Of a stretch of 64,000 bases of DNA, positions 5,905 through 20,511 are shown in pieces (within the stretch, counting starts at the first letter, position 1; every line of letters begins with the position of its first letter). Below the pieces are notes generated by a model, which saw nothing but the letters and a program-made list of their open reading frames with translations, made no database searches and was not told the DNA's origin. The stretch is taken from the NCBI GenBank assembly GCA_965648905.1, contig CBFGIT010000001.1, positions 96,001 through 160,000 of the forward strand. Reading direction: 5' to 3'. A program made the translations under genes and the position numbers. The stretch is from a candidate division WOR-3 bacterium. Lineage in GTDB: Bacteria > Hydrothermota > Tepidihabitantia > Tepidihabitantales > Tepidihabitantaceae.

Positions 5905-7390
5905 CAGGTAGAACCGTGGCAGCAGAGCATAACCTGTCAGTATAGAACCCAGCTCAGGTTGCGTCAAGCCAGGCCACCAGCCCCTAGTTCCGACATTGGG
6001 ACCTCGATTCCGGTGAAAAAAGAAGCTGCTCCCCTCGTATCACCTGCGTCCAAACACTATATGACAGTTCACCCGTCAGGTGAAGAAAGGAGCAGCCAGA
6101 TGTTTAGACCAATGCTAACCCAGAAACGGCTCGACTTCCAGCTTGCGCCAACCTCCGATACTATCACCAGTCGGGCCTGCCCGCGCCCAGGCAGGCGGGC
6201 AGGTCTGGCCCTGTTTTCAGGAAGCCGCGCTGGCACTGGGTGTCCGCAGGAGCCATCTTGGCAGTCGATTCTCACTCTGCCTTCGGCCTTTGTCCGCACT
6301 CCTGCCTCCTTTCGTCTTTTCTGCACCTCTGCCATTCTGCACTCTGCAATCTGTATTCTGCCTTCGTCCTACCATATGACCATCCCCTGGCTGGTAAGGG
6401 GGACGGTTCCCCTTTCGGAACCCCCTGCCCCGACCCCGGCCGAAACCCGTTGGGCAGCCCCAGGCGAAGCGGCTACGCCTTCCCCTGCCCCAGTCCTTTC
6501 GGCAACCCCTGCGCCTGTCGCCGCCCCGGGGGGTTCGGCGGCCCGCGCCCAGGCCCGATGCGTTCGCGGGTCCCCAACCCAGACCCAGACCGGTGCCGAC
6601 CCCCCTGCCCATCCGCCCGCGCCTCCCCTTGCCCAGACCACCGCAGTACCCCTCAGCCCGGCAGAGAAGACGACACCAGAGACCATCCGGACCATCCGGT
6701 TTGCCCGCAAGCGTCTGATAACGGCCGATGCCACAAATGTGTCCGCACTCCGAAACCCATCAGACGACGGTCTACTTAGTCAATCGGACTACCAACCGCG
6801 TGATCCCATCAAGTCCGAAGCTCAATATCGGGATTGGGGACCAGGGGGCCGGAATCTCTCCTGTCGTGGTCACGATTCCGGCAGCGGGCAGAGCAGTCCT
6901 ACCGCTTCTCTCACCACTGCCCACGCGAGCGCTGCCAGACCCGGTGTCGAGTCCGGCCCTGCGCACGACCGCCAACCTGCCCCCGGACCAGCCTTGGGGC
7001 CCGCAACCGCAACCGGCAGCCCTGATGCTGCCCGTCCTGCAACCGCACCCGCCGCCACAACCGGCAAGACATCTGACTCCAGCTCCGACGCGGCAGATGC
7101 CGGCCCAGCCGGCTTCTCGCCCGAACTCGGGTTCGGCAAGGGGAGCCACTCCCCCACTCGCTCCCAGAGCCACCCGAAAGACCCGGCGCGAAACTGAGGA
7201 CTAGGCTCCAAGTCTCGCAAATGCAAGACTTAACCCGACTGGTCGTGCTTGTGCAATGCGCGGCTCTAGTCAACGCCGGCCTGACTGCATTCCGCCTGGG
7301 GTTTGTCTCTTGGCTTCTACTCTGCCTGTCGCTGTGTCGCCGCCGCTTTGGCCGTCAGTGCCCAGGGGCCAGTGCCTGACGCGCACGCAC

Positions 7391-7437
7391 TGCACCATGC
7401 GGTGCAAGCTTGACTTGGTCGCATTGCGCTCTAGACT
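7391..7437 (+). promoter_or_regulatory. Putative cas operon promoter with upstream inverted repeat
   Basis: TGCACC-ATGC-GGTGCA (7391-7406) just before TTGACT-16-TAGACT (7410-7437). Confidence 0.5.
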
Positions 7438-7510
7438 TCGACTCAACAAGCTGCCCCGGCAGAACGCATTGGTTCGGGCAATGCCGCCTGCCGGGGAGCG
7501 CGAGGGAAAG

Positions 7511-8425
7511 ATGAGAGTTGTACGTCTGAGTGTAGAACTGACCGCTCGTGAACCGGCCCGGCTGCCGCGTTACAAAGGCGCTGTTGTCCGCGGCGGTTTC
7601 GGACTTGCGTTTCGGCGGGTGAGCTGTCCGTTCCCGAAACGCGAGTGTGCTGACTGCCTGCTCGTGAAGCAGTGCGTCTGGTCGTACGTCTTCAACACGC
7701 CCCGACCGGACAACGCCACGGTCATGCGCAAATACGAAACCATTCCCCGGCCCTTTGTCATCGAGCCGCCAGAAGACCAGCGCACCCGGCTTGAGCTCCG
7801 CGACCAACTGCAGTTCGGACTTGTCCTGGTCGGCCGGGCAATCGAGCACATCCCCTACTTCATCTACGCCTTTGAGCAGATGGCCGAGCAGGGGCTGGGA
7901 ACAGGCCGGGGCCGGTTTGCCCTGACCGCGGTCCGACAGGATGGTACGCTCTTTTTCGACAGCAGGGCCAAGTGCTTTGTCACCCCGCTCAGGACGATGT
8001 CACTCGAGCTGGCACCCGGCGCTGACAACCCGGCCCGCGTCACCCTCTACTTCACAACTCCGCTCCGAATCATCCACGAAGGCAGAATGGTACGCCGACC
8101 CGAGTTCCATATCCTGATGCGGGCTCTGCTCCGGCGTCTCGGCCTGCTTGCCTACTTTCATGACCAGCCGGTCGAGCTTGACTACAAGACCCTTATCGGG
8201 CAAGCTGAGAGCGTACCGATGGTGGACTGCGCCCTTGCCCGAGTCGAATGGCGCCGCTTCTCCTCGCGTCAAGACCGCGTGGTCGAGATGGAAGGCATGG
8301 AAGGCAGGGCGACGTACGAAGGCAATGTTGGTCTGTTCCTGCCCTTCCTGAAAGCGGGCGAAATACTCCACGTCGGCAAGGGCACAACTTTCGGCATGGG
8401 CAAATACAAGATGGAGGTGAGATGA
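7511..8425 (+). CDS. cas6: CRISPR pre-crRNA endoribonuclease Cas6
   Basis: GAVVRGGFG, Cys cluster, PRPFVIEP, C-terminal G-rich loop HVGKGTTFGMG; ATGA overlap with cas10. Confidence 0.92.
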   Translation: MRVVRLSVELTAREPARLPRYKGAVVRGGFGLAFRRVSCPFPKRECADCLLVKQCVWSYVFNTPRPDNATVMRKYETIPRPFVIEPPEDQRTRLELRDQLQFGLVLVGRAIEHIPYFIYAFEQMAEQGLGTGRGRFALTAVRQDGTLFFDSRAKCFVTPLRTMSLELAPGADNPARVTLYFTTPLRIIHEGRMVRRPEFHILMRALLRRLGLLAYFHDQPVELDYKTLIGQAESVPMVDCALARVEWRRFSSRQDRVVEMEGMEGRATYEGNVGLFLPFLKAGEILHVGKGTTFGMGKYKMEVR

Positions 8426-10653
8426 ATAACAACGAAGACCGCGAGTTTCAAACCGTCGTCCTCGCTGCCCTGCTCCACGACATCGGCAAATTCGCTCAAC
8501 GGGCCGGAGTAGTCCCGGGCGGCTACGAACATTTCACCGAAGACGACCACGGTGCTCACGGCGCTCACGGCAAGTGGGGCGCATGGTTTGTCGAGCATTA
8601 CCTGCCTGACGAGTATAAAGCCGCTGGTGCCGCCGTGCTATTCCACCATCGACCCCAAGACCCTGTCACAGAGCTGGTCGCGCGTGCTGACCGTCTTTCT
8701 GCCGGTGAAAGAAACCTGGATTCGGGAGGAGACACATCTAAGTCCAGGCTCGTGCCGATTCTCGGCCGGGTCTATCGTCCGGCGTGGGCCGAAAACGGGT
8801 TCCGACTGAGGCCGCTGTCCATTAGGAAGGACGACGTCTTCCCATTGTGTCCGCAGTCGACTCCGGGTCTCACCGATGAGTACGCTTCTCTCTGGTCCCA
8901 GTTCGCACGCGACGTCGCTGTCCTGCGCAGCAGGAATCTGTCGTTCAGCGCACTGCTCATGACCATGCTTCATCTGCTCCACAAGTACACGTGGTGTATC
9001 CCTAGTGCCGTGTGGGGCTCAGAACCGGACATATCGCTTTATGACCATCTGAAGTCAACCGCAGCTATTGCCGCGGCCCTGTTCAGGTCAGGTCAGCCGG
9101 GCAGGTTCCGGCTCGTGGGCGGCGACATTTGCGGCATCCAGAACTTCATCTATCGACTCGCATCACCGGATGAAGCCCAGGCGGGCATGGCACAACGTCT
9201 GCGCGGCCGTTCGTTCTACGTAGCGCTGCTGGCCGATACAATAGCGGCGGCGGTGCTTGATGAGCTGGCACTGCCCGTGACCAACGCCCTATGGTGCGGC
9301 GGTGGCAACTTCACCATTCTGGCGCACGACATGGCCAACACGCGCGAACTCGAGGTCAGACTGGAAAACTGGCTCTTGGAGCGCTTCCAAGGAGAACTCG
9401 GACTGGCACTCGCCTTTGTGGACATCGACGAGACAGGGCTAGTCAACCTAGCCGACTCCTTGGGCCGACTTGGCCATGAGCTTCAGAAGGCGAAGCAGCA
9501 CAGGTTTGCGTCAGTGGAATGGCATCAGCCGTTCGCATTGACCGGTGAAGTGTGCCGCGTCTGCGGGAAAGACAGTGTCGAAGCTCTCTGTGCTGCATGC
9601 CGACAACACGAGCGGGTCGGCCAGGCAATCCCCCGCAGCAGATACTTGTACCGCGTAGCAGCGGCAGAGGAAGACAGTCAAGACCCGATCACGGAGTTCC
9701 GCGAGTTCGGCGCTGCTTGGGGCTTGGCCGGCGACCTGAGCGACGTGCCAAAGGGAGCCACAGAGGTCTACGCACTCAACACCACGGAGATGCCCCTTGC
9801 GTCAGTGCCACCACACGTCGGATGCGGCTTCAGGCTCCTCGCCCAGCGGGTTCCGGGTGACGGTCACGGCATCCTGACCTTTGACGAGATGGAACGCCGG
9901 AGTACCGGTGCGAAGTTCCTCGGCGCCTTGCGAATGGATGTGGACAATCTAGGCAAGACGTTTGGCTTCGGACTCGGCCAAAACAAGACGCTGTCCAGAA
10001 TTGCCGCACTAAGTCGGTCGATTGACCTTTTCTTCAGCGGCTACCTGAATGAGCTTGCTTCAGACTTCGAAACAGCCTACGTACTGTACGCCGGTGGAGA
10101 CGACGTCTTTGTTGTTGCTGCCTGGGACGAGGCTGTGGCCGTGGCGCGCCGGATCCGGGACGAACTGATGGCCTACTCCTGTGACAACGACCACGTGTGC
10201 ATCTCCGCCGGATTACACCTCTTCAAGCACGCATTCCCGATCGGCATCGCGGCCGGGCTGGCACGGGAAAAGCTGGAGAATCTGGCGAAGAAGAATGCGT
10301 CTGAAGGTCGCGAGAAAGATTCTCTCGCCGTCTTTGAATTCCCCTGCACCTGGCACAGAGCACGCGAAGCGCTCGCTCTTGCAGCAGAGGTGCTCAGACC
10401 GAGCATCGAGTCGAAACACTTGTCGCGACGCTTCTTGTACAACCTGCTAGACATCTATCGCACCCATTTCCGCAACGGAGTCGAGCACATTGGCTGGGTA
10501 CCCAGGTTTCGGTACCTGCTGAAGCGCAACGTCCCTGCAGAGGTCGACGGCCACCCCAATGAGCTGTATGCTACGCTTCTGGCGAAAATGCCGACGATGA
10601 TGAGACTCACGCCCCTCTGGGCAAATTGGGTTCTACTGGCAACAAGAGACTAA
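8422..10653 (+). CDS. cas10: Type III-A Cas10/Csm1
   Basis: HD motif LLHDIGK, DISLYDH, LRGRSFY, MDVDNLG, intact YAGGDD palm; GGAGGTGA RBS. Confidence 0.96.
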   Translation: MNNNEDREFQTVVLAALLHDIGKFAQRAGVVPGGYEHFTEDDHGAHGAHGKWGAWFVEHYLPDEYKAAGAAVLFHHRPQDPVTELVARADRLSAGERNLDSGGDTSKSRLVPILGRVYRPAWAENGFRLRPLSIRKDDVFPLCPQSTPGLTDEYASLWSQFARDVAVLRSRNLSFSALLMTMLHLLHKYTWCIPSAVWGSEPDISLYDHLKSTAAIAAALFRSGQPGRFRLVGGDICGIQNFIYRLASPDEAQAGMAQRLRGRSFYVALLADTIAAAVLDELALPVTNALWCGGGNFTILAHDMANTRELEVRLENWLLERFQGELGLALAFVDIDETGLVNLADSLGRLGHELQKAKQHRFASVEWHQPFALTGEVCRVCGKDSVEALCAACRQHERVGQAIPRSRYLYRVAAAEEDSQDPITEFREFGAAWGLAGDLSDVPKGATEVYALNTTEMPLASVPPHVGCGFRLLAQRVPGDGHGILTFDEMERRSTGAKFLGALRMDVDNLGKTFGFGLGQNKTLSRIAALSRSIDLFFSGYLNELASDFETAYVLYAGGDDVFVVAAWDEAVAVARRIRDELMAYSCDNDHVCISAGLHLFKHAFPIGIAAGLAREKLENLAKKNASEGREKDSLAVFEFPCTWHRAREALALAAEVLRPSIESKHLSRRFLYNLLDIYRTHFRNGVEHIGWVPRFRYLLKRNVPAEVDGHPNELYATLLAKMPTMMRLTPLWANWVLLATRD

Positions 10654-10663
10654 AGGAGGCAAT

Positions 10664-11086
10664 ATGCCCACGACACTAGATGATTTCGTGACAAGCATCA
10701 GATCCAAGAGCTGCTTGGACGACGATATGATGGCGAAGGCCGAGAAGCTGGGCCAGGAGCTGGGAGGAGTCACCACCAGCAAGATGCGTCAGTACTTCGA
10801 CGACATCAAAGGCCTACGGCGCATGGTCGAGAGCAGGGCAAGTGCGCAGCAGGTCAAGGTGAAGCTGCGCCTCGTGCAGTCGCGGCTTGCCTATGACGTA
10901 GGCCGGGCCAGCAAGAAACAGCGGCCCGACATGGAGAAACTCAAGCGCTTCCTGGACGCAGGTATCTCTCGGGTCTTGAACAGCAACGACGCCTGCCAAG
11001 CGGTCAAGGACTTTGCCGTGTTCTTCGAATGCGTCTATGGGTACTTCTACTCCAACGCCAAACCGGAGAATGAGGAGGAAAGATGA
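10664..11086 (+). CDS. csm2: Type III-A small subunit Csm2
   Basis: TTSKMRQYFD, LAYDVGR, FFECVYGY; position in operon. Confidence 0.9.
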   Translation: MPTTLDDFVTSIRSKSCLDDDMMAKAEKLGQELGGVTTSKMRQYFDDIKGLRRMVESRASAQQVKVKLRLVQSRLAYDVGRASKKQRPDMEKLKRFLDAGISRVLNSNDACQAVKDFAVFFECVYGYFYSNAKPENEEER

Positions 11087-11919
11087 GCTACAGGTTTCTA
11101 GGAAACATCATAGTGACCGGCACAATCAAGTGCGAAACCGCCTTGCACATTGGTGGCACAGTCGAAGGTTATGAAATCGGTGGGATGGATAACCCCGTTA
11201 TCCGTGAACCCGTAACCGGGTATCCCTACATACCAGGGTCTTCGCTCAAAGGGAAGATGCGCAGTCTGCTGGAATGGGCCAAAGGTCACGTACAGGTTGC
11301 CGAGGTCGACAAGAACGGCAAGAAAAGGGAAGTTGGCGAGGTCCACAGTTGCAGCAGAGCAGACTGCCCGGTCTGTCGTTCATTTGGCACACCGGCCGAA
11401 CAGACCAGAATCGTGGGGCCGACTCGGCTCTTGGTGCGGGACGCACACCCGACCGAAGACACCAAGAAGAACCTCGACCGTCTGCAACTCGAAAAGGGCC
11501 TTCCCAAGGCCGAATGGAAGTCGGAGAACTATATGAACCGCGTAACAGCACAGGCCACGCCGCGGACCATCGAGCGTGTTCCACAGGGCGCGGAGTTCGC
11601 GCTTGAGTTGGTCTACGGGCTGTACCGGGTAGAAGGCGAACAGGACATTGTCGACATTGGTCACCTGCAGTACGTGATTGAAGCGATGCGCCTGCTGGAA
11701 GACTCGGCACTGGGCGGGTATGGTTCGCGCGGCTCCGGCAAGATTTCGTTCGACCTTGCCGGGAGTGTCCTTCTCCGAACAACCGCCGACTATGAGACGG
11801 GCAAGCCCGGTATACCGCTTGACTTTGGCTCTCTCAAGGACGCAGACGTTGGCAAGCTTAAAGAGCAGGTGAAAAGGCACCTGGCCCAGGCAGATGAAGG
11901 CGCTGACGCTACATCTTAG
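11083..11919 (+). CDS. csm3: Type III-A RAMP Csm3
   Basis: LHIGG, IGGMDNPVIR (catalytic Asp), PYIPGSSLKGKMR, LGGYGSRGSG. Confidence 0.95.
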   Translation: MSYRFLGNIIVTGTIKCETALHIGGTVEGYEIGGMDNPVIREPVTGYPYIPGSSLKGKMRSLLEWAKGHVQVAEVDKNGKKREVGEVHSCSRADCPVCRSFGTPAEQTRIVGPTRLLVRDAHPTEDTKKNLDRLQLEKGLPKAEWKSENYMNRVTAQATPRTIERVPQGAEFALELVYGLYRVEGEQDIVDIGHLQYVIEAMRLLEDSALGGYGSRGSGKISFDLAGSVLLRTTADYETGKPGIPLDFGSLKDADVGKLKEQVKRHLAQADEGADATS

Positions 11920-12901
11920 GTCCCCGTCGGGATTCAAGGATACCCTGCCTCGCTCTGATACGCTGTTCGGCGCGGTCTGTTGGGGCATCTGGCTACTATA
12001 CGGTGAAGTGAGGCTCAGGCAGTTCCTTGCGAGCTACGCGAACGAGAATCCTGCGCTAGTAGTGTCGTCGGCATTTCCTTACTTGGTAAGCGACGGACAG
12101 ACAACACATCTCTTCCCCAAACCAAAGTCCTGCCCCGCGACACCGCCAGCCGACGAGCGCCACTTCGGGCTTGCCAAGCGTTTCCGAAAGGTCAGATACC
12201 TGGACGACGCGTTGTTCCAAAAGGTCATCGAAAACGGCCTGACCAATCAGGACCTGTGGGATTCGCTGGTTCGGAATGAGACAACTCTTTCAGATGACCA
12301 ACAGGTTCTCTCGCACGTCCGCTCGAAAGGCCCCGGCTTGAAGCTTGAGGTGGTACCTGGCAATGCAATCGACCGGCTCGCCGGAGGTACGCTTGAAGGC
12401 ATGCTCTACCATTCGACCGAATGGTTCTTCGGCCCGGACACGGGGGCGTTCTTTCTTGCCCGCCTTGCTGAAGAATGGGAGAAGGAAGCGCTCGCGGTGT
12501 TCCGCTACTACGGGGACAAAGGGCTGGGCGGCGACAGCTCGGTCGGCAAGGGCAACTACAAACTCGACGTAAATGATGGCTTGCCGTATCGAGAGCCGTC
12601 CGACGGCAAGCGCTGGGTGACGTTGTCGCTGTACTATCCGAAACCGGCTGAGTGGGATTTCTGCCGGAACAATCCCGAACAATCCTGGTACTCGGTGATA
12701 CGGCGCAAGGGCAGAGTCGAGAGCGCCTTCAGCCCGACTACCAACTCCTGGAAGAAATCTGTGCTGATGCTTGAAGAAGGGTCGAGCTTCCCTGTCATTG
12801 ACGGAATCGGTGAGTACGGGATGCTGCCCGAGGTTGGGGCAAGACCGGATGGTGCCAAGGTGCTCCAAAATGGGCTTGCTTTCCCGGTCAAGATGAGGTG
12901 A
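11894..12901 (+). CDS. csm4: Type III-A RAMP Csm4
   Basis: RSDTLFGA, VSSAFPY, GLGGDSSVGKG, EEGS. Confidence 0.93.
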   Translation: MKALTLHLRSPSGFKDTLPRSDTLFGAVCWGIWLLYGEVRLRQFLASYANENPALVVSSAFPYLVSDGQTTHLFPKPKSCPATPPADERHFGLAKRFRKVRYLDDALFQKVIENGLTNQDLWDSLVRNETTLSDDQQVLSHVRSKGPGLKLEVVPGNAIDRLAGGTLEGMLYHSTEWFFGPDTGAFFLARLAEEWEKEALAVFRYYGDKGLGGDSSVGKGNYKLDVNDGLPYREPSDGKRWVTLSLYYPKPAEWDFCRNNPEQSWYSVIRRKGRVESAFSPTTNSWKKSVLMLEEGSSFPVIDGIGEYGMLPEVGARPDGAKVLQNGLAFPVKMR

Positions 12902-12904
12902 ACC

Positions 12905-14080
12905 ATGAGCACAAGAGCAACAGACACCTATGAACTGAAGCTCACCCCACTCAGTCCGATCCACATCGGAACTGGCCGCGAGTACTTTCCCCAAGAGTAC
13001 TGTCTTGTCAGCGATCCAGACCGCGTCCTTATTGTAGACCTGAACTCGCTGATTCAGAAGTACCCGGACATTGCCGAACAGAGCTTTGCGGCTGGGAGAC
13101 GCGAACCCCTCTGGAAAACCCCGGCTGGCAACCTGGTCCGACAGGATAAGTCATTGGTTCTATACTCTGACAAGACCGACCGCCATACTGCCGGCGACAT
13201 CAAGACTTACGCCGAGCGCGGCAACGCCGCAACCATACGGGAGTTTACCAAGACGGCAAACTCGCAACCCTACATTCCTGGCAGTTCCGTCAAAGGCGCG
13301 GTTCGTACGGCAATCGCGTACGCCCTGCTCAGCAGTTCGGCTGAGATGTTCACCCGGTTCAAGCGTGCGGTTGTATTGACCGACAATGGCAGGGTTAGGC
13401 AAGGAGACAAGGAGGCAGTCGAGCACGCGGTGTTCGGCGACAGCGGAGACGCACACGAAGACATCATGCGCGTCTGGTCGTTCAGCGACTCATCCTCGCT
13501 GGCCTGTGACCGGACGCTCACTGTGGTGAAGGGCAAACGGCTGTCAAGCACTGGGCCGCTCGGGTATGAGAACTACTATGAGGTCCTGACCGAGACGAGT
13601 GGTCCGCTTCTGCTTCGATCGGCATTTGACCGTGCGTTGGCAGCGTCGGGCGCATGGACGAGCAAGACGTTGTCCGGTCTGCCCAAGACCATGAAAGATG
13701 TTTTCTCGTGCCTGAATCAGTTTGCTGACGACATCATCGCGTATGAACTTACCTATTTCGATAGGCATCCAGCCAAGCCGCAGGAAGTCGTGAACTTCTA
13801 TCAAACCCTCAAGCAGCGACGCGAGCACGGCGAGGTTCTGCTCTGTCTAGGCAAGGGCACTGGTTGGCATAGGAAGACCATAGGCCAGCTTCTGCGCAAG
13901 GACCGAAGCTCCATCTTCCGCGACGTCGTAAGCGCGTACAGCCTCGGCAAGGGCCAACGCCGCTTCACAGACTTTCCGACCTCCCGTGAGATGGCCGTTC
14001 GCGCCCGCATGCCGGGCGTGTTCGGTTGGGCCAGAATTGAACAGATGAGCAGCAAGCAACCAGATGGGAGAACCAGATGA
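12905..14080 (+). CDS. csm5: Type III-A RAMP Csm5
   Basis: LSPIHIGTG, PYIPGSSVKGAVRTA, LGKGTGWHRKT. Confidence 0.92.
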   Translation: MSTRATDTYELKLTPLSPIHIGTGREYFPQEYCLVSDPDRVLIVDLNSLIQKYPDIAEQSFAAGRREPLWKTPAGNLVRQDKSLVLYSDKTDRHTAGDIKTYAERGNAATIREFTKTANSQPYIPGSSVKGAVRTAIAYALLSSSAEMFTRFKRAVVLTDNGRVRQGDKEAVEHAVFGDSGDAHEDIMRVWSFSDSSSLACDRTLTVVKGKRLSSTGPLGYENYYEVLTETSGPLLLRSAFDRALAASGAWTSKTLSGLPKTMKDVFSCLNQFADDIIAYELTYFDRHPAKPQEVVNFYQTLKQRREHGEVLLCLGKGTGWHRKTIGQLLRKDRSSIFRDVVSAYSLGKGQRRFTDFPTSREMAVRARMPGVFGWARIEQMSSKQPDGRTR

Positions 14081-15306
14081 CAGCTTACATTGCCACTGTC
14101 GGCACGAGTGAGGCACGCAAGGGTGACATTGTTGCCGCCCTGTCTTTGTCCGCAGGCCAGATGACCCCCGGTTTCGTTCTGCTGTTGGCCACAGAGAAAT
14201 CTAGGCCCAACGCCGACGCCATCCTCCAGCAACTTGGCCGCGACGACAGCAACTCGCTTATCTACGTCCTCGAGGCCGAGCCTGAACACGCGCAGAACAT
14301 CTATAACGAAACGATTGACGTCATAACGCGGACGCTGAGCCGGCACCATATTCGGCCCGACGACGCCACCGCTGACATTACGTCAGGAACCAAACCGATG
14401 TCCGCAGCTCTGACCTTGGCCGCAGTTAAGCTCGGAATCGGCTATCTACGGTACGTGGCGGTCGAGAAGACTGCTAACAAGGAGGTCTGTACCGGCACCG
14501 AGGAGCTTCGGACGTTCCGGCCACTGGGCTTCCGTGCATCGCTCCTGCTCGACTCGGCGGTCAACCTGATGCGCCAGTACCGTTTCGATGCTGTCCGGCA
14601 ACTGCTTGAACCCATGCCCGAACACCTGTTGAGCGAATCTGAGAGGGCGACAAGGACCTGTCTCCTCTGTCTGGCGCGTGCATATTCCCACTGGGACATG
14701 TTCCGCCACACGCACTTTCAGGGCGAGTACGGCAAGGCGCGCTTTGGCGGCTTACCCGAGCTTCAGCAGTTCCGGCCTCAGCCCGACACGGTGCGAACGG
14801 TCTTGGAACTGGGCGTGGCTCTTGAGCAGGGCAAGCCGACCGACCTGGCTGTCGTCGACCTCATCAACAACGCCCGTCGCCGCATCGAAGAAGGCAAGTT
14901 CGACGACGCGACCGCCCGGCTCTACCGTGCCACCGAGATGCTTGCTCAGTGGCGACTGCACACCAAGCACGGCATCGACACTTCCGATGTTGACATCAAC
15001 AAGGTGCCACAGGCTTCGCGTCAATGGCTGGAGTACAGCCGCGACAACACCGACAAGAAAATCAGAGTCGCCTGCGAACGCGGCTACCGGCTTCTCTTCG
15101 ACCTGGGTGACCCGCTGGGCCCTGCTTTCAAAGACATCAAAGGCAATCTCCGGACTCGCAACGACTCCATCCTGGCCCACGGGCTCACGCCTGTCACCGA
15201 GGAAGTCTGCAACAGCCTGCGCAAAGCGGTCGAGAAGATGGCGAAGGAGGCCATCGCCGACTACGACTCGAAGTCCGCTCTGCTCCGGTTTCCCTGGAGC
15301 AGGTAG
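14077..15306 (+). CDS. csm6: CARF-HEPN cOA-activated ribonuclease (Csm6-like, TIGR02710-type)
   Basis: CARF motifs ATVGTS and DITSGTKPMS; DDATARLYRATE; HEPN RNDSILAHG. Confidence 0.85.
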   Translation: MTAYIATVGTSEARKGDIVAALSLSAGQMTPGFVLLLATEKSRPNADAILQQLGRDDSNSLIYVLEAEPEHAQNIYNETIDVITRTLSRHHIRPDDATADITSGTKPMSAALTLAAVKLGIGYLRYVAVEKTANKEVCTGTEELRTFRPLGFRASLLLDSAVNLMRQYRFDAVRQLLEPMPEHLLSESERATRTCLLCLARAYSHWDMFRHTHFQGEYGKARFGGLPELQQFRPQPDTVRTVLELGVALEQGKPTDLAVVDLINNARRRIEEGKFDDATARLYRATEMLAQWRLHTKHGIDTSDVDINKVPQASRQWLEYSRDNTDKKIRVACERGYRLLFDLGDPLGPAFKDIKGNLRTRNDSILAHGLTPVTEEVCNSLRKAVEKMAKEAIADYDSKSALLRFPWSR

Positions 15307-15414
15307 CCACCGGCCGACCAGCCGGTGGCACAGGCGGTCCGCGCCTGCTGCTCTTTGACAATTTGGAGTGAAACCGACCCCAACACATCATCGACCAAAC
15401 CTGAGGCGGACACA

Positions 15415-16404
15415 ATGGCTACCCTCTATGTGACTGAACAAGGCGCCAAGCTCACCCGTGAATCACGCCGTCTCCTGGTCGTACGCGGCGACGAAACTCT
15501 GCTTGACGTCCCGACCATCAAAGTCGAACGCGTGCTCATCTTCGGCTACTGCCAGATTACCACCCAGGCGCTCGAACTCCTGCTCAACGAAGGCATTCCG
15601 ACCGCGTTCCTCTCCATGGAAGGCCGGCTCAAAGGCACACTCGAACCGACGAAATCGAAGAACATCCCGCTGCGCGTGGCCCAGTACGAAACCTGCCGCC
15701 AGCCCGACTTCTGCCTCACCATGGCCAAACGCATCGTCGCCGGCAAAGTCAAGAACCAGTCGCGGCTGGTACAGCGCTTTGCTCACAACCGGCCCGAGCT
15801 CGACTTCGCCCAGGTGCAGGCCGACCTTGCCCGCCTGCACAGCGAGGTTGACCACAAGACCGCGGCCGGCGGCCTGCTGGGAATTGAAGGACACGCGACC
15901 GCCGTCTACTTCGACGCCTTCCGCCAGATGTTCCAGCAGCTCTCCTTCGAACGCCGCACGCGCCGGCCGCCAACCGACCCGGTCAACTCGCTCCTGAGCC
16001 TCGGCTACACCATGCTCGCCAACGAATACCTCTCAGCCGTCGCCGCCGTCGGACTCGACCCGCACCTGGGCTACTTCCACTGCGTCAGCTACGGTCGCCC
16101 CTCGCTCGCGCTCGACCTCTGCGAAGAGCTCCGCCACCCGCTTGTCGACATGCTCACGCTCGACCTGGTCAACCGCGCCATCCTCAAAGAAGACGACTTC
16201 AACCAGGAGCAAGGCGGCTTCATGCTCAAACCCGAAGCGAGAAAGCGTTACTTTGCCAAGTACGAACGCCGCATGACCATCCGGTTCAAACACCCGCGCA
16301 CCGGCCAGACTACCAACGTTCGTTCGATAATCCGCGACCAGGCGCTGGCGATGGCGCACGCGATTCAAGAGAAGAAACCCTATGAACCATACTACATCGG
16401 ATAG
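15415..16404 (+). CDS. cas1: CRISPR-associated endonuclease Cas1 (no RT or Cas4 fusion)
   Basis: LYVTEQG, LLGIEG, PPTDPVNSLLSLGY, GYFH, LALDLCEELR; GAGG RBS before ATG 15415. Confidence 0.96.
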   Translation: MATLYVTEQGAKLTRESRRLLVVRGDETLLDVPTIKVERVLIFGYCQITTQALELLLNEGIPTAFLSMEGRLKGTLEPTKSKNIPLRVAQYETCRQPDFCLTMAKRIVAGKVKNQSRLVQRFAHNRPELDFAQVQADLARLHSEVDHKTAAGGLLGIEGHATAVYFDAFRQMFQQLSFERRTRRPPTDPVNSLLSLGYTMLANEYLSAVAAVGLDPHLGYFHCVSYGRPSLALDLCEELRHPLVDMLTLDLVNRAILKEDDFNQEQGGFMLKPEARKRYFAKYERRMTIRFKHPRTGQTTNVRSIIRDQALAMAHAIQEKKPYEPYYIG

Positions 16405-16413
16405 AGGTGGCAG

Positions 16414-16713
16414 ATGAACCAGACCAGCTCCGACCAGTGGCACGTTGTCGTCAGCTACGACATCAAGAGCGACCGCCGCCGCAACAAGGTATGCAAGGCC
16501 ATGAAAGACTACGGCGAACATATCCAGTACAGCGTCTTCGAATGCCTGCTCAAGCCCAAGGACCTCGACCGGATGGCAAAGCGCGTCCAGTCGCTGATTG
16601 ACGAAGCCGAAGACAACGTTAGAATATACGTGCTTTGCGCTGCCTGCCGTGACCGGGCCAGGGTTATCGGCCAGGGCCAGGTCATAGAAGACCCTGACGT
16701 TCTGGTGGTTTAG
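16414..16713 (+). CDS. cas2: CRISPR-associated endonuclease Cas2
   Basis: VVSYDI, IQYSVFEC, DNVRIY. Confidence 0.96.
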   Translation: MNQTSSDQWHVVVSYDIKSDRRRNKVCKAMKDYGEHIQYSVFECLLKPKDLDRMAKRVQSLIDEAEDNVRIYVLCAACRDRARVIGQGQVIEDPDVLVV

Positions 16714-16805
16714 TTCTGGGTTGACGGCAAGAGGCGCAAGAACAGGGGTCTCAACCCAAACGGCCTACTTAAGCTACTGTTTAGCAATAGCTTACAAGGC
16801 CGAGG
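16714..16805 (+). promoter_or_regulatory. CRISPR leader
   Basis: Between cas2 and the first repeat; relatively AT-rich, with dyad TAAGCTACTG-TTTAG-CAATAGCTTA. Confidence 0.75.
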
Positions 16806-17693
16806 GTCAGAATCCTCGCCCTGATGAAAAAGGGATTACGACCTGTAGGCTTACACCCACAGCACGAACACTCAATTGTCGTCAGAATCCTCGCCCTGAT
16901 GAAAAAGGGATTACGACAAGCCGTCCGGTGACTCCCAGTTGTCGTCGTAGCAGGCACGTCAGAATCCTCGCCCTGATGAAAAAGGGATTACGACGCAGAC
17001 GCCAGACTCAAGCTCGACCCAGCTCTGCTGCGTCAGAATCCTCGCCCTGATGAAAAAGGGATTACGACGCTTCTCTGTCAGCGAGTACGAAGCGCGGCCT
17101 ATCGAGTACCGAGTCAGAATCCTCGCCCTGATGAAAAAGGGATTACGACCAAGGTCCAAAGAACCCCATGACGATCACGGAGCATCCAGATTCGGTCAGA
17201 ATCCTCGCCCTGATGAAAAAGGGATTACGACGAGGAGTTCGCAGCGCTTCTGAGAATCGGCGCGAAGTGGGTCAGAATCCTCGCCCTGATGAAAAAGGGA
17301 TTACGACGTGTCGGTGGTTCAAGCGTGTCGTTCTCATCCTGCGTTGAGTCAGAATCCTCGCCCTGATGAAAAAGGGATTACGACCTGACGTGGTGGGCGA
17401 AGATACGCTCGTTCTGGTTCTGCCTGTCAGAATCCTCGCCCTGATGAAAAAGGGATTACGACCCCACATAGGGACCCCAATACCCTGCGCATACATTTCT
17501 CTGGGTCAGAATCCTCGCCCTGATGAAAAAGGGATTACGACCTATCGGTGAGCCTTACTGCCACCTTCCCAACACCAGGTATGTCAGAATCCTCGCCCTG
17601 ATGAAAAAGGGATTACGACTTCAAGAGGGTGTCCACGAACTCCAGCAGGTAGTTGCGGTACGTCAGAATCCTCGCCCTGATGAAAAAGGGATT

Positions 17694-18353
17694 TACCGCG
17701 CCTGACGGCGCAAAGGCAGATTGCAGATTGCAGAATGCAGAAGTCAAAATGCCGGGCCGTCCGATGCTTTGACCTTTGCACTTTGCATTTTGCCTTTTGA
17801 CTTGCGCGCGCAGCGCGCCAGTCCTCGCCCTGATGAAAAAGGGATTACGACACCGCCTTTACGAGAGGCGGAAGACTAAGTGCGACGCTCACGTCAGAAT
17901 CCTCGCCCTGATGAAAAAGGGATTTACCGCGCCTGACGGCGCCAAGGCAGAGTGCAGATTGCAGAATGCAGAAGTCAAAATGCCGGACCGTCCGATGCTT
18001 TGACCTTTGCACTCTGCATTTTGCCTTTTGACTTGCGCGCGCAGCGCGGTGGAATCCTCGCCCTGATGAAAAAGGGATTTGCCGCACCTGACGGCGCCAA
18101 GGCAGAGTGCAGAATGCAGAAGTCAAAATGCCGGACCGTCCGATGCTTTGACCTTTGCACTCTGCATTTTGCCTTTTGACTTGCGCGCGCAGCGCGCCAG
18201 TCCTCGCCCTGATGAAAAAGGGATTTACCGCGCCTGACGGCGCAAGGGCAAAAGGCAGATTGCAGAATGCAGAAGGCAAAATGCCGGGCCGTCCGACACT
18301 TTGACCTTTGCACTCTGCATTTTGCCTTTTGACTTGCGCGCGCAGCGCGCCAG
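17694..18353. mobile_element. Four copies of a 121-130-bp non-autonomous palindromic element inside CRISPR repeats
   Basis: Copies at 17694-17821, 17925-18054, 18080-18200, 18226-18353, each flanked by the repeat core TCCTCGCCCTGATGAAAAAGGGATT; arms are inverted heptamer runs; GC hairpins at both ends. Confidence 0.8.
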
Positions 18354-18532
18354 TCCTCGCCCTGATGAGAAAGGGATTACGACTTGACGGGCGGCGAGAG
18401 TTGAGTATGCTCTGCACGATGCCGAGTCAGAATCCTCGCCCTGATGAAAGAGGGATTACGACATGGCGCGTCGTGCCGGAACTGACGATTGGGCTACTAA
18501 CCGCTACCTACGTAGCGTAGCTAAAGAGGTGG

Positions 18533-18736
18533 TTGATGAACTCACTGCACAAAGCTTTGGAAGAGGTGAAAAATCGGGAGCAGACGCCCGAGGAAGCAGA
18601 GAAGGCGCTGGAAAGCCTGTTGTCAGAGGCGAAGAGCTTCCTCGAGAGAAATGGATTTCCATTGACCACAGAGAATTTGCAAGGCGCTTTGATAATCATC
18701 CGGGCTGGCAGAAGAATGAAGAGGGATTCAAGTTAG
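18533..18736 (+). CDS. Small hypothetical protein (67 aa) inside the terminal giant spacer
   Basis: GAGGTGG RBS, helical charged sequence; overlaps a second open frame starting at 18463. Confidence 0.4.
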   Translation: MMNSLHKALEEVKNREQTPEEAEKALESLLSEAKSFLERNGFPLTTENLQGALIIIRAGRRMKRDSS

Positions 18737-18870
18737 CGCACGATGCGCTATCGAACATCCCGGAGCTATCTACCCAATTGCAGCGGCTGGAGAACGGGGA
18801 ACTGCATCCCCGGCTGGCGCTACAGATAGTTGACGCCTACGACCAGGCGCGGTTTCGGTCAGAATCCTCG

Positions 18871-20511
18871 CTAAGGAGTCTGCTCCGACTCTGGCAATTC
18901 TGCTTCTCGCATCTCGGCGATTTCGAGTATCTCGACTGCGCGCAGAGCCGCCTGCTTCACGATGCGCGGCTGCTTGCTCAAAGGCCAGGGCCTTGCCATT
19001 CTACGCAACTGGGGCAGAGCGCGGGTCACCCGGAGCCCGGCCAGTCCGTCAATCGCCGCAGCACGGATTTCCGGCTCCGGGTCGTCAAGAGCGGCGAGAA
19101 GGAATTCGGCGCCAATCGGATTGCCAATCTCGCCAACCGCACGCAGGGCGCAGGCCCGCACCAGGTCGCTCTCATCCTTCAGCCGGTCGAGCAGCGGCAT
19201 GGTCGCACGAAAGTCGCGCAGTTTGCCCAGTGCCTCAGCCGCCATTGCTCTCACGACCGGGTCACGGTCGGAAAGCGCGTTGACGAGCGCCGGTGCGGCC
19301 CGGCTTTCACCAATCTCGCCGAGCGCCTGGGCTGAGACGATTCTCACCCAGACCGTCGCATCAGAAAGACCCTGAATCAGCCGTTCGCAGGCTCCCTTGT
19401 GCCGCAGCCGGCCAAGCACATCGGTTGCGCGCACGCGCACCTCGACCAGATTATGGCCGAGCAACTTGAACGTCGGGTCAAGGGCCAGAGCGGCCTGGGC
19501 CTCAAGACCGTTTGCTGCGGCCGCGGCAACTTTCGGGTCCTCGTCTGCCAGCGCAGCAGCCAACAGCTCGGCCGAACGAGAGTTGTGAATCCGGCCCAGG
19601 GCTGATACCGCTGCCAGCCGTACCCGGTCATCAGCATCGGTCAGCACGCCGGCCAGTGCCTCAATGCAGCTCGGGTCGCCGATACCGCCGAGCACCTCGG
19701 CCGCCGATGCCCGCACGGTCGGATTCTCGTTCACCAGCAGCTCCGCGACCGGAATCAGGGCGGTCTTTCCCTGGTCGAGCAGCGCGGTCATCGCATTCAG
19801 CCGGTCGGAAAGGTCCTCAGATGCAAGCGCACGAATCAGCGGGTCCACGGCCTGAACGCTGACGCTGCGCAAAGCCTCAAGTGCGGCGCGGCGGACTTCC
19901 GGGTCCGGGTCTTCGGATGATATGCGGGCGAGCAGCTCCACTGCCTTGCGGTGGCGGAGCCGACCCAGGGCAGTGGCTGCGGCGCAGCGCATTTCCGGGT
20001 TGTCATCGGCCATCTCATCCATCAGCGCATCAACGGTCGAAGGGTCCCGGATTTCACCCAGCGCGCGCGCGGCCGCGATGCGCACCGAATCGACCAGGTC
20101 GCGCAGCAGGTCAAGGAGCGGAGGGATAGCAGCACGGCCGCCAATTCGGCCCAGGGCCACAGCAATTGCCGCACGGGTCTCAGGGTCGCGGTCGGTCGCA
20201 TTACGGGCCAGCAGTCCGACCGCCGAATCAAGGCCCAGCCGGCCAATCAACTCCGGAACCAAAGTCCCAACCGGCCCCTGCCAGTTACTGACGCAGCGGC
20301 TTACCGGCTCGATTGCAGCCGTTCCCAGTGCGACCAGCGCATCGGCCGCACGGCGCCTGATGCTCTCATCCGGGTCAGAAAGCAGCAAAACCAGCGCACC
20401 CGCAGCCTCGCTGCCGCCGATGTTTGCCAACCGGTCCACTGCCTGACCACGAACAACCGGGTCCGTGCTGTGCAGGTCAGAAACGACCCCGCTCAGCGAG
20501 AGATGCTTCAC
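18871..20511 (-). CDS. HEAT/PBS-lyase-like repeat protein
   Basis: Many VRxxAAxALGxIG repeats; GTGA overlap with cutA. Confidence 0.9.
   Translation of the reverse strand: MKHLSLSGVVSDLHSTDPVVRGQAVDRLANIGGSEAAGALVLLLSDPDESIRRRAADALVALGTAAIEPVSRCVSNWQGPVGTLVPELIGRLGLDSAVGLLARNATDRDPETRAAIAVALGRIGGRAAIPPLLDLLRDLVDSVRIAAARALGEIRDPSTVDALMDEMADDNPEMRCAAATALGRLRHRKAVELLARISSEDPDPEVRRAALEALRSVSVQAVDPLIRALASEDLSDRLNAMTALLDQGKTALIPVAELLVNENPTVRASAAEVLGGIGDPSCIEALAGVLTDADDRVRLAAVSALGRIHNSRSAELLAAALADEDPKVAAAAANGLEAQAALALDPTFKLLGHNLVEVRVRATDVLGRLRHKGACERLIQGLSDATVWVRIVSAQALGEIGESRAAPALVNALSDRDPVVRAMAAEALGKLRDFRATMPLLDRLKDESDLVRACALRAVGEIGNPIGAEFLLAALDDPEPEIRAAAIDGLAGLRVTRALPQLRRMARPWPLSKQPRIVKQAALRAVEILEIAEMREAELPESEQTP

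Follow-up and report, generated by a model that had tools for sequence, protein, structure and literature searches.

Heptamer-armed hairpin cassettes between partial CRISPR repeats of a type III-A array and its relatives, with probable recurrent entry beside the Cas6 site

The window analysed here, a stretch of 64,000 nucleotides from a candidate division WOR-3 bacterium (genome G000), carries a type III-A cas operon on the + strand (7256..16713) comprising cas6, cas10/csm1, csm2-5, a gene for a TIGR02710 CARF protein, cas1 and cas2. The matches to cas10/csm1, csm2-5, cas1 and cas2 all exceeded their curated cut-offs and, together with the adjoining array, identify the locus as type III-A; the cas6 match fell below its curated cut-off (E 3e-6), and the 359-aa cas1 product had no RT match. 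The gap between cas2 and the first repeat (16714..16805, + strand) is a putative leader, a role suggested by its position and by decay at the opposite end of the array, and BLAST recovered only this single copy in the genome. Upstream of the operon, the window also contains an 859-bp non-coding element (5981-6839) whose terminal inverted repeats are imperfect and which is flanked by a target duplication of 5 bp (5976-5980 and 6840-6844). Other contigs hold about 15 related copies of this 859-bp element, complete or partial; several of them sit immediately upstream of promoter-like sequences. No DDE_Tnp_1 partner for it was found in the genome.

The array has 18 repeat cores (16806-18462) and a consensus repeat of 37 bp. 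Its regular part (16806..17661, +) consists of 11 intact 37-bp repeats and 11 spacers, and all 13 ordinary spacers of the array measure 37-45 bp. No spacer had a clear match to its own genome (best E 0.017), and an Rfam search matched CRISPR-DR32 to the array on the + strand under the gathering score, other Rfam matches being chance miRNA-like ones. We take the Cas6 cut to lie 8 nt before the repeat end, following the usual 8-nt handle rule and the predicted hairpin, at whose base the cut would fall. The last full-length repeat (18426..18462, +) has one substitution and is followed by a post-array segment (18463..18871, +) of 394 bp (18463-18856) that leads into the first 15 nt of a repeat. 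This 394-bp sequence is single copy and of lower GC (54%), and includes a 66-codon ORF (18538-18738) for which Pfam and Atlas searches were empty; a contig of the public run X1 runs from it on into repeat sequence. The long gene-bearing 'spacer' on contig C2 of the relative G037 resembles this segment.

The trailer half of the array holds four palindromic inserts of 121-130 bp, one single and three in tandem, between repeat cores of 25-28 bp, in agreement with the coordinates and lengths of the preliminary description. Repeat 12 (17662..17693, +) lacks its last 5 nt and ends 3 nt past the inferred Cas6 cut, where copy 1 (128 bp, 17694..17821) begins with a left GC hairpin, followed by a heptamer arm, a loop, an inverted heptamer arm and a right GC hairpin with a GCA loop. 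Behind it stands a repeat without its first 7 nt (17822..17851, +), which keeps the hairpin and the full 3' end and leads into a normal spacer (17852-17892). The next repeat (17893..17924, +) again ends 3 nt past the inferred cut and opens the tandem: copy 2 (130 bp, 17925..18054), whose final 3 nt also match repeat positions 5-7; a 25-bp linker core corresponding to repeat positions 8-32 (18055..18079, +); copy 3 (121 bp, 18080..18200); a second 25-bp linker core (18201..18225, +); and copy 4 (128 bp, 18226..18353). Both linkers are identical to the repeat. A 5'-truncated repeat (18354..18383, +) with one loop substitution and a full 3' end closes the tandem and precedes a normal spacer (18384-18425).

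These junctions bear out the earlier claims that the upstream repeat loses its ACGAC end and the downstream repeat most or all of GTCAGAA: the left repeat retains 32 of 37 nt at all four inserts, and 7 nt are missing from the start of the right repeat (4 nt at copy 2). The terminal GC hairpins and opposed heptamer arms are likewise present, with one substitution in the left hairpin of copy 3, and copy 3 is indeed one heptamer shorter, being 7 nt shorter than copies 1 and 4. Divergence between pairs of the four copies ranges from 4.1 to 9.4%. As DNA, the copies folded more stably than shuffled sequences (z -3.2 to -7.4), their inverted heptamer arms making a long stem, and in RNA folds of the four units bounded by Cas6 sites the repeat hairpin formed in 4 of 4. 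None of the copies contains a four-helix-bundle ORF. The idea that the cores are more conserved than the elements, with one change per 100 bp in the array and one per 25 bp at the off-array locus described below, was dropped because the numbers are too small.

Repeats assembled from short reads invite the suspicion of an assembly artefact. Two contigs of run X1 cover the junction from copy 2 through the core to copy 3, one with at least 31 letters on either side of the core, and both carry alleles other than those of the window. Contigs of the cas1 region in run X1 (contigs, 4% of sampled words) show 2-8 differences per 150-515 nt, indicating that the run represents a related strain. This junction with new alleles and a similar tandem away from the array on contig C9 make an artefact unlikely, the four copies differ from one another by 4-9%, and five further genomes show the same design; we therefore assign this explanation, named in advance as a possible refutation, a negligible probability.

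A search for the repeat core across 272 genomes matched 15 genomes besides this one, and a second pattern added more. Inserts between repeat cores numbered 14, with lengths of 79-450 bp, in six genomes of four families. The comparison of related arrays that had been proposed was productive: other heptamer cassettes turned up between the repeat cores of five relatives. BLAST between the five insert types found no mutual similarity, and the relatives' inserts lack the terminal GC hairpins of the window element. The full element was not found in the 271 other genomes of the phylum that were searched, 15 of which gave arm or single-end matches only.

G038 contains four units between cores, three of them tandem hairpin units with a 99-bp period and the fourth bearing a complete four-helix-bundle gene, and the gene-less and gene-bearing units have a common right end; the normal repeats of G038 are unassembled, and the G035 repeat served as the reference. 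G210, from the window's own family, carries a gene-bearing cassette between cores, and the genes in the G038 and G210 inserts match PF05635 above the cut-off. A gene remnant lies between cores in G037, and a 126-bp hairpin lies between a whole repeat and a cut core in G025. The main array of G035 carries a G038-type unit, while two leader-bearing mini-arrays of the same genome (contigs C7 and C15) carry a different hairpin class with the same right flank; G035 has in this way two unrelated hairpins in the same slot. The C7 and C15 hairpins share arm sequence with the G210 cassette (E 1e-4). G203 shows an empty form of the site, a state that can also come from deletion between cores.

Several further features of these arrays were recorded. 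In G035, the CRISPR leader together with the first repeat recurs without spacers at three further places (L322 and L323, contigs C7 and C15), each copy being followed by a heptamer hairpin. In G223 (L264, contig C57), about seven cas-proximal repeats are heavily degenerate at both ends but retain the hairpin and the two nucleotides that follow. Array remnants in G037 (L257, contig C31) and G034 (L268, contig C19) are followed by what appears by eye to be a broken cas6 gene.

The junctions of the 14 inserts follow a common rule. In 13 of them, across the six genomes, the left repeat copy extends 2-4 nt beyond the inferred Cas6 cut; the exception is the G025 insert, whose left repeat keeps all 8 nt. 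On the right, 16-25 nt ahead of the inferred cut are retained, exactly in 12 of 14 cases and with one loop change in the other two. Because the repeat hairpin begins 16 nt before the cut and the right copy keeps at least that many, the hairpin is always retained on the right. The duplicated sequence is 25-28 bp long in the window array and 18-24 bp in the relatives. Both flanking repeats are whole at none of the 14 inserts and the left one is whole at a single insert, and on this basis an ordinary protospacer with full repeat flanks was rejected.

Off-register integration by Cas1-Cas2, one of the two origins first suggested, seems unlikely. In 13 of 14 inserts the boundaries, 2-4 nt downstream of the inferred cut on one side and 16-25 nt upstream of it on the other, depart from a whole-repeat duplication. 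A modified account has Cas1-Cas2 integrating an excised genomic hairpin as an oversized spacer, after which selection against self-targeting removed the left handle and the right 5' end decayed. Consistent with it, the cas1-cas2 genes adjoin the array, the G025 insert comes after an intact repeat, long gene-bearing segments lie behind intact repeats on G037 C2 and at window positions 18463-18856 (such segments measure 290-394 bp), the right junction of copy 2 keeps 25 nt like a decayed repeat start, and the CARF effector would make self-targeting costly. Yet it requires two-sided trimming in 13 of 14 inserts, and the G035 inserts join at +3 even though no handle remains to be lost from the terminal repeat in that genome, where nothing of the downstream arm past +3 or +4 is duplicated. 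The inserts also far exceed the 37-45-bp spacers in length and lie at the trailer end, and Cas1 was found in only two of the five relatives with inserts, in assemblies 91-97% complete. We regard this account as unlikely.

In the same five assemblies an RT was found in two cases and a Y1 protein in none. The two RTs, in G035 and G025, are fused to Cas1 and adjoin arrays built on another repeat, which is why they were dropped as an enzyme source. These fusions (L324, G035:C8, 6748-9381, and L325, G025:C123, 992-3664) are 877 and 890 aa long, and their long N-terminal part looks Cas6-like by eye.

Heptamer arms are also associated with the ends of arrays. Using a threshold of at least 13 of 21 matches, chosen after inspection of the data, period-7 arms followed 12 of 19 array ends from 14 relatives (8 of the 14 genomes positive). 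On the upstream side they were present in 1 of 16 cases; the corresponding rates were 1.4% for 3000 random positions and 4.9% for 1682 stop codons of G000. The 19 ends omit, of 12 fetched regions, seven without a core at 3 mismatches (one of which, in G064, is an array with a different repeat) and one at a contig end; G009 and G004, whose arrays run off contigs, were also omitted. Small P values from such counts are overstated, because these genomes are related to one another, some insert types recur among them and the threshold was chosen post hoc. An arm followed 1 of 84 canonical repeat ends, namely that of G025, which is also among the 12, and outside the phylum 1 of 9 non-canonical repeat ends, in a planctomycete record (L192).

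Truncated terminal repeats also occur alone: the last 5 nt are lost without any arm in G032, G034, G202 and G209 and in several arrays of other phyla, and the accessible text of PMC12839519 describes terminal repeats as mutating more. Since terminal repeats often lose their last bases anyway, the left boundary may reflect selection rather than insertion chemistry. This bears on an account without any targeting, in which cassettes settle without duplication behind a decayed terminal repeat and recombination between repeats later copies cores and moves units. The frequency of terminal truncation suits such an account, as do the many relatives that have an arm behind the last repeat and no second core, the 7 of 11 four-helix-bundle cassettes of G000 without a flanking direct repeat of at least 9 nt, and the element pair on C9, which has no duplication outside it. 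It explains poorly, however, why a 5'-cut core stands to the right of five unrelated insert types when no spacer behind would select for it, and how two different inserts came to occupy one slot; the arms also start, by eye, about 10 nt or less from the truncation instead of at scattered distances. We judge it improbable, and place it below the oversized-spacer account.

Genome-wide BLAST, as recommended in the preliminary description, located copies of the element off the array. At C9 71269-71525 the order element-core-element recurs with one change in the core, in a place with no array, and C11 has a solo copy that is about 22% diverged. A precise, duplication-free insertion at C9 was considered and set aside, as it rests on a 3-bp match that is too weak. 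A low-complexity stretch upstream of cas6 in the window (6852-7300) has an 81%-identical paralogue at C9:71528-71974, which ends exactly at the off-array pair, and a GATT junction is common to both contexts. The heptamer class is much more widespread, with 73 arm matches of at least three units genome-wide, 10 of them belonging to the array and C9 copies, versus none in one mononucleotide shuffle. Beyond these genomes, a metagenome scan for the left end of the element matched 48 times; neither heptamer arms nor a repeat core accompanied any of these matches, which we read as chance, and a viral scan for the junction gave none.

No transposase of the families searched lies near the inserts, as had been noted, and contig C1, which bears the array, has no Y1, IS110 or RT match at all. 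Elsewhere the genome holds two Y1 genes, three IS110 matches and two RTs; candidate mobility enzymes, none of them on the array's contig, are the RT of a DGR that also has avd, an RT resembling those of group II introns, the two Y1 proteins, IS110 and two tyrosine recombinases. The RT on C31 reads as a group II intron type by eye. DDE_Tnp_1 had no match anywhere in the genome.

The preliminary description had also proposed a MITE/REPIN-like parasite that targets the repeat. A non-autonomous mini-element, targeting and tandem multiplication all survive in the reading given below, which extends them to relatives, but the family label fails the tests specific to REPINs and MITEs. For a REPIN-like element moved by a RAYT/IS200-type HUH transposase one can cite the terminal GC hairpins, with GCA and GTCA loops at each strand's 3' end, the two Y1 genes, and the existence of tandem REPIN clusters with short linkers in the portion of PMC3116915 available. 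The left hairpin, however, has only nine matches in the genome at one mismatch or fewer, six of them inside these elements; the suggested check for such transposases found no element end within 1.5 kb of either Y1 gene; Y1 was found in none of the five relatives with between-core inserts; and the inserts of those relatives lack these hairpins. This origin is very unlikely. Inspection of the flanks for target duplications, also suggested, found no fixed short one, and a MITE of a DDE transposon was rejected on the same point: the duplication is 25-28 bp in the array and 18-24 bp in relatives, and none lies outside the C9 pair.

The genes in the relatives' cassettes point to a different kinship. 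G000 has 11 matches to PF05635, the four-helix-bundle family, of which two resemble DGR avd genes and six have inverted arms; arms of this element's own class bracket four-helix-bundle genes at C39 and C8:37018. None of the 11 lies near a repeat core. At the four of these loci that have a flanking direct repeat of at least 9 nt, the repeats are heptamer or nonamer arrays or DGR repeats. A gene-bearing parent with the terminal hairpins of the window element was not found. In four relatives, 3 of 10 four-helix-bundle loci lie near cores, so that these cassettes are not CRISPR specialists but generalists for which the array is a hot spot.

Other loci of G000 combine similar parts. A DGR-like locus (L105, C3:84000-94000) has avd, a template repeat, an RT and two target genes; upstream of it lies a distinct four-helix-bundle gene with heptamer arms, and a second avd with a repeat pair lies at C51 ~700-1200. 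At C29:7700-13820, four similar heptamer-containing repeats of about 120 bp, spaced 1.5-3 kb apart, form a cassette-array-like arrangement beside an IS110-family gene.

We infer that the window element is probably a gene-less version of a heptamer-armed four-helix-bundle cassette of the 23S-rRNA IVS type, and that cassettes of this lineage repeatedly enter type III-A repeats 2-4 nt past the Cas6 site, with duplication of 18-28 bp that include the repeat hairpin. The anatomy of the inserts, the geometry of their junctions, their recurrence with several insert types and the occurrence of both gene-bearing and gene-less forms are direct observations, and the likeliest explanation is that cassettes inserted repeatedly at the Cas6 site and a long stretch was duplicated. 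The insertion event itself would make the duplication: unrelated inserts have a 5'-cut core on their right, in many cases not followed by a spacer, and the simplest account appears to be that insertion duplicated the core. Once present, a unit of element plus core could multiply through recombination or slippage between cores, which would give rise to the tandem in the window, the tandem in G038 and the exported pair on C9.

Such inserts may be tolerated because both Cas6 sites survive, and spacers downstream would still be processed. Since the hairpin persists in all four units, Cas6 should still cut and is predicted to release RNAs of 146-155 nt with a broken handle. An insert RNA lacking five of the eight handle bases should not load into Csm, which would avoid self-targeting of heptamer-bearing transcripts.

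As for the first insertion, we tentatively favour, within this reading of cassettes entering at the Cas6 site, a nick-primed, RNA-linked route tied to that site. One boundary is fixed and the other variable, as in target-primed insertion as we understand that mechanism, and for this reason such a route seems preferable to whole-repeat duplication by Cas1-Cas2. A bolder version, about which we are doubtful, is that heptamer/four-helix-bundle cassettes are RNA-mobile parasites for which the Cas6 site serves as both landing pad and release signal. Cas6 would excise a unit-length RNA (146-155 nt) unable to load into Csm, and an Avd-like four-helix-bundle protein and an RT acting in trans might copy it into another repeat at the same position; the DGR RT and the group II intron RT are those in the genome on which such a process could draw. 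If true, this would be the mobility route that has been missing for IVS elements, as well as a novel mode of parasitising CRISPR arrays.

A full-text literature search, with subscription literature mostly outside its reach, found no precedent for the pattern of insertion into CRISPR repeats, and recurrent cassette insertion at one repeat position is apparently undescribed within the literature searched. The inserts indicate that mobile DNA can live in an array and leave the crRNA processing signals intact. According to the available parts of PMC4390879, mobile elements in arrays are very rare, the examples being one IS and one 132-bp MITE from an early survey and an IS insertion into a spacer, and arrays are described there as transposition-resistant. 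The cases here share with those insertions the presence of mobile DNA within an array, and differ in being recurrent at one repeat position with the processing hairpin kept on both sides. The likeness to REPINs and RAYTs, as far as the accessible text of PMC3116915 describes them, lies in a small palindrome that is not autonomous, ends in hairpins and forms tandem clusters; the element here differs in its few hairpin copies, none beside a Y1 gene, in its heptamer arms, and in that Y1 was not found in five of five relatives with such inserts.

New spacers inserted by Cas1-Cas2, and casposons, resemble the inserts in that repeat sequence is duplicated around new DNA, whereas here only part of the repeat is duplicated, the inserts are 79-450 bp long and, in full arrays, they lie away from the leader. 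Casposon target duplications are of similar length. Small dispersed repeats, reportedly treated by Elhai in 2008, offer another comparison. Together with the intergenic heptamer repeats of Beggiatoaceae and cyanobacteria (PMC4679880, in the text available), they recall the genome-wide heptamer arrays near gene starts and stops and the tiny GC hairpins beside heptamers. The available text of PMC4679880 does not say how those heptamer repeats spread, and the paper nowhere uses the word CRISPR.

The closest likeness in content is to the 23S rRNA IVS with an ORF (S23p/PF05635), for example the Coxiella IVS, which in the accessible sections of PMC4990558 shows inverted arms that pair into a long stem, tandem heptamers that differ in number by a single unit, and the four-helix-bundle ORF found here in the cassettes of gene-bearing relatives. 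IVS elements reside in rRNA, whereas these cassettes occupy CRISPR repeats and intergenic DNA and so are not IVS in the strict sense; the window copies differ further in having no ORF, extra terminal GC hairpins and, as in the relatives' arrays, a flanking duplication within the 18-28-bp range. According to the same sections, it is unclear where IVS elements come from, how they move and what their four-helix-bundle protein does. The CRISPR cases add what the rRNA cases lack: the target is defined, the site is seen both empty and filled, cassettes exist with and without the gene, and the junctions follow a rule that can be measured. Together these make the mechanism of IVS mobility testable with a minimal array. 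Hairpin cassettes in CRISPR repeats may thus provide a first testable clue to how IVS-type cassettes move.
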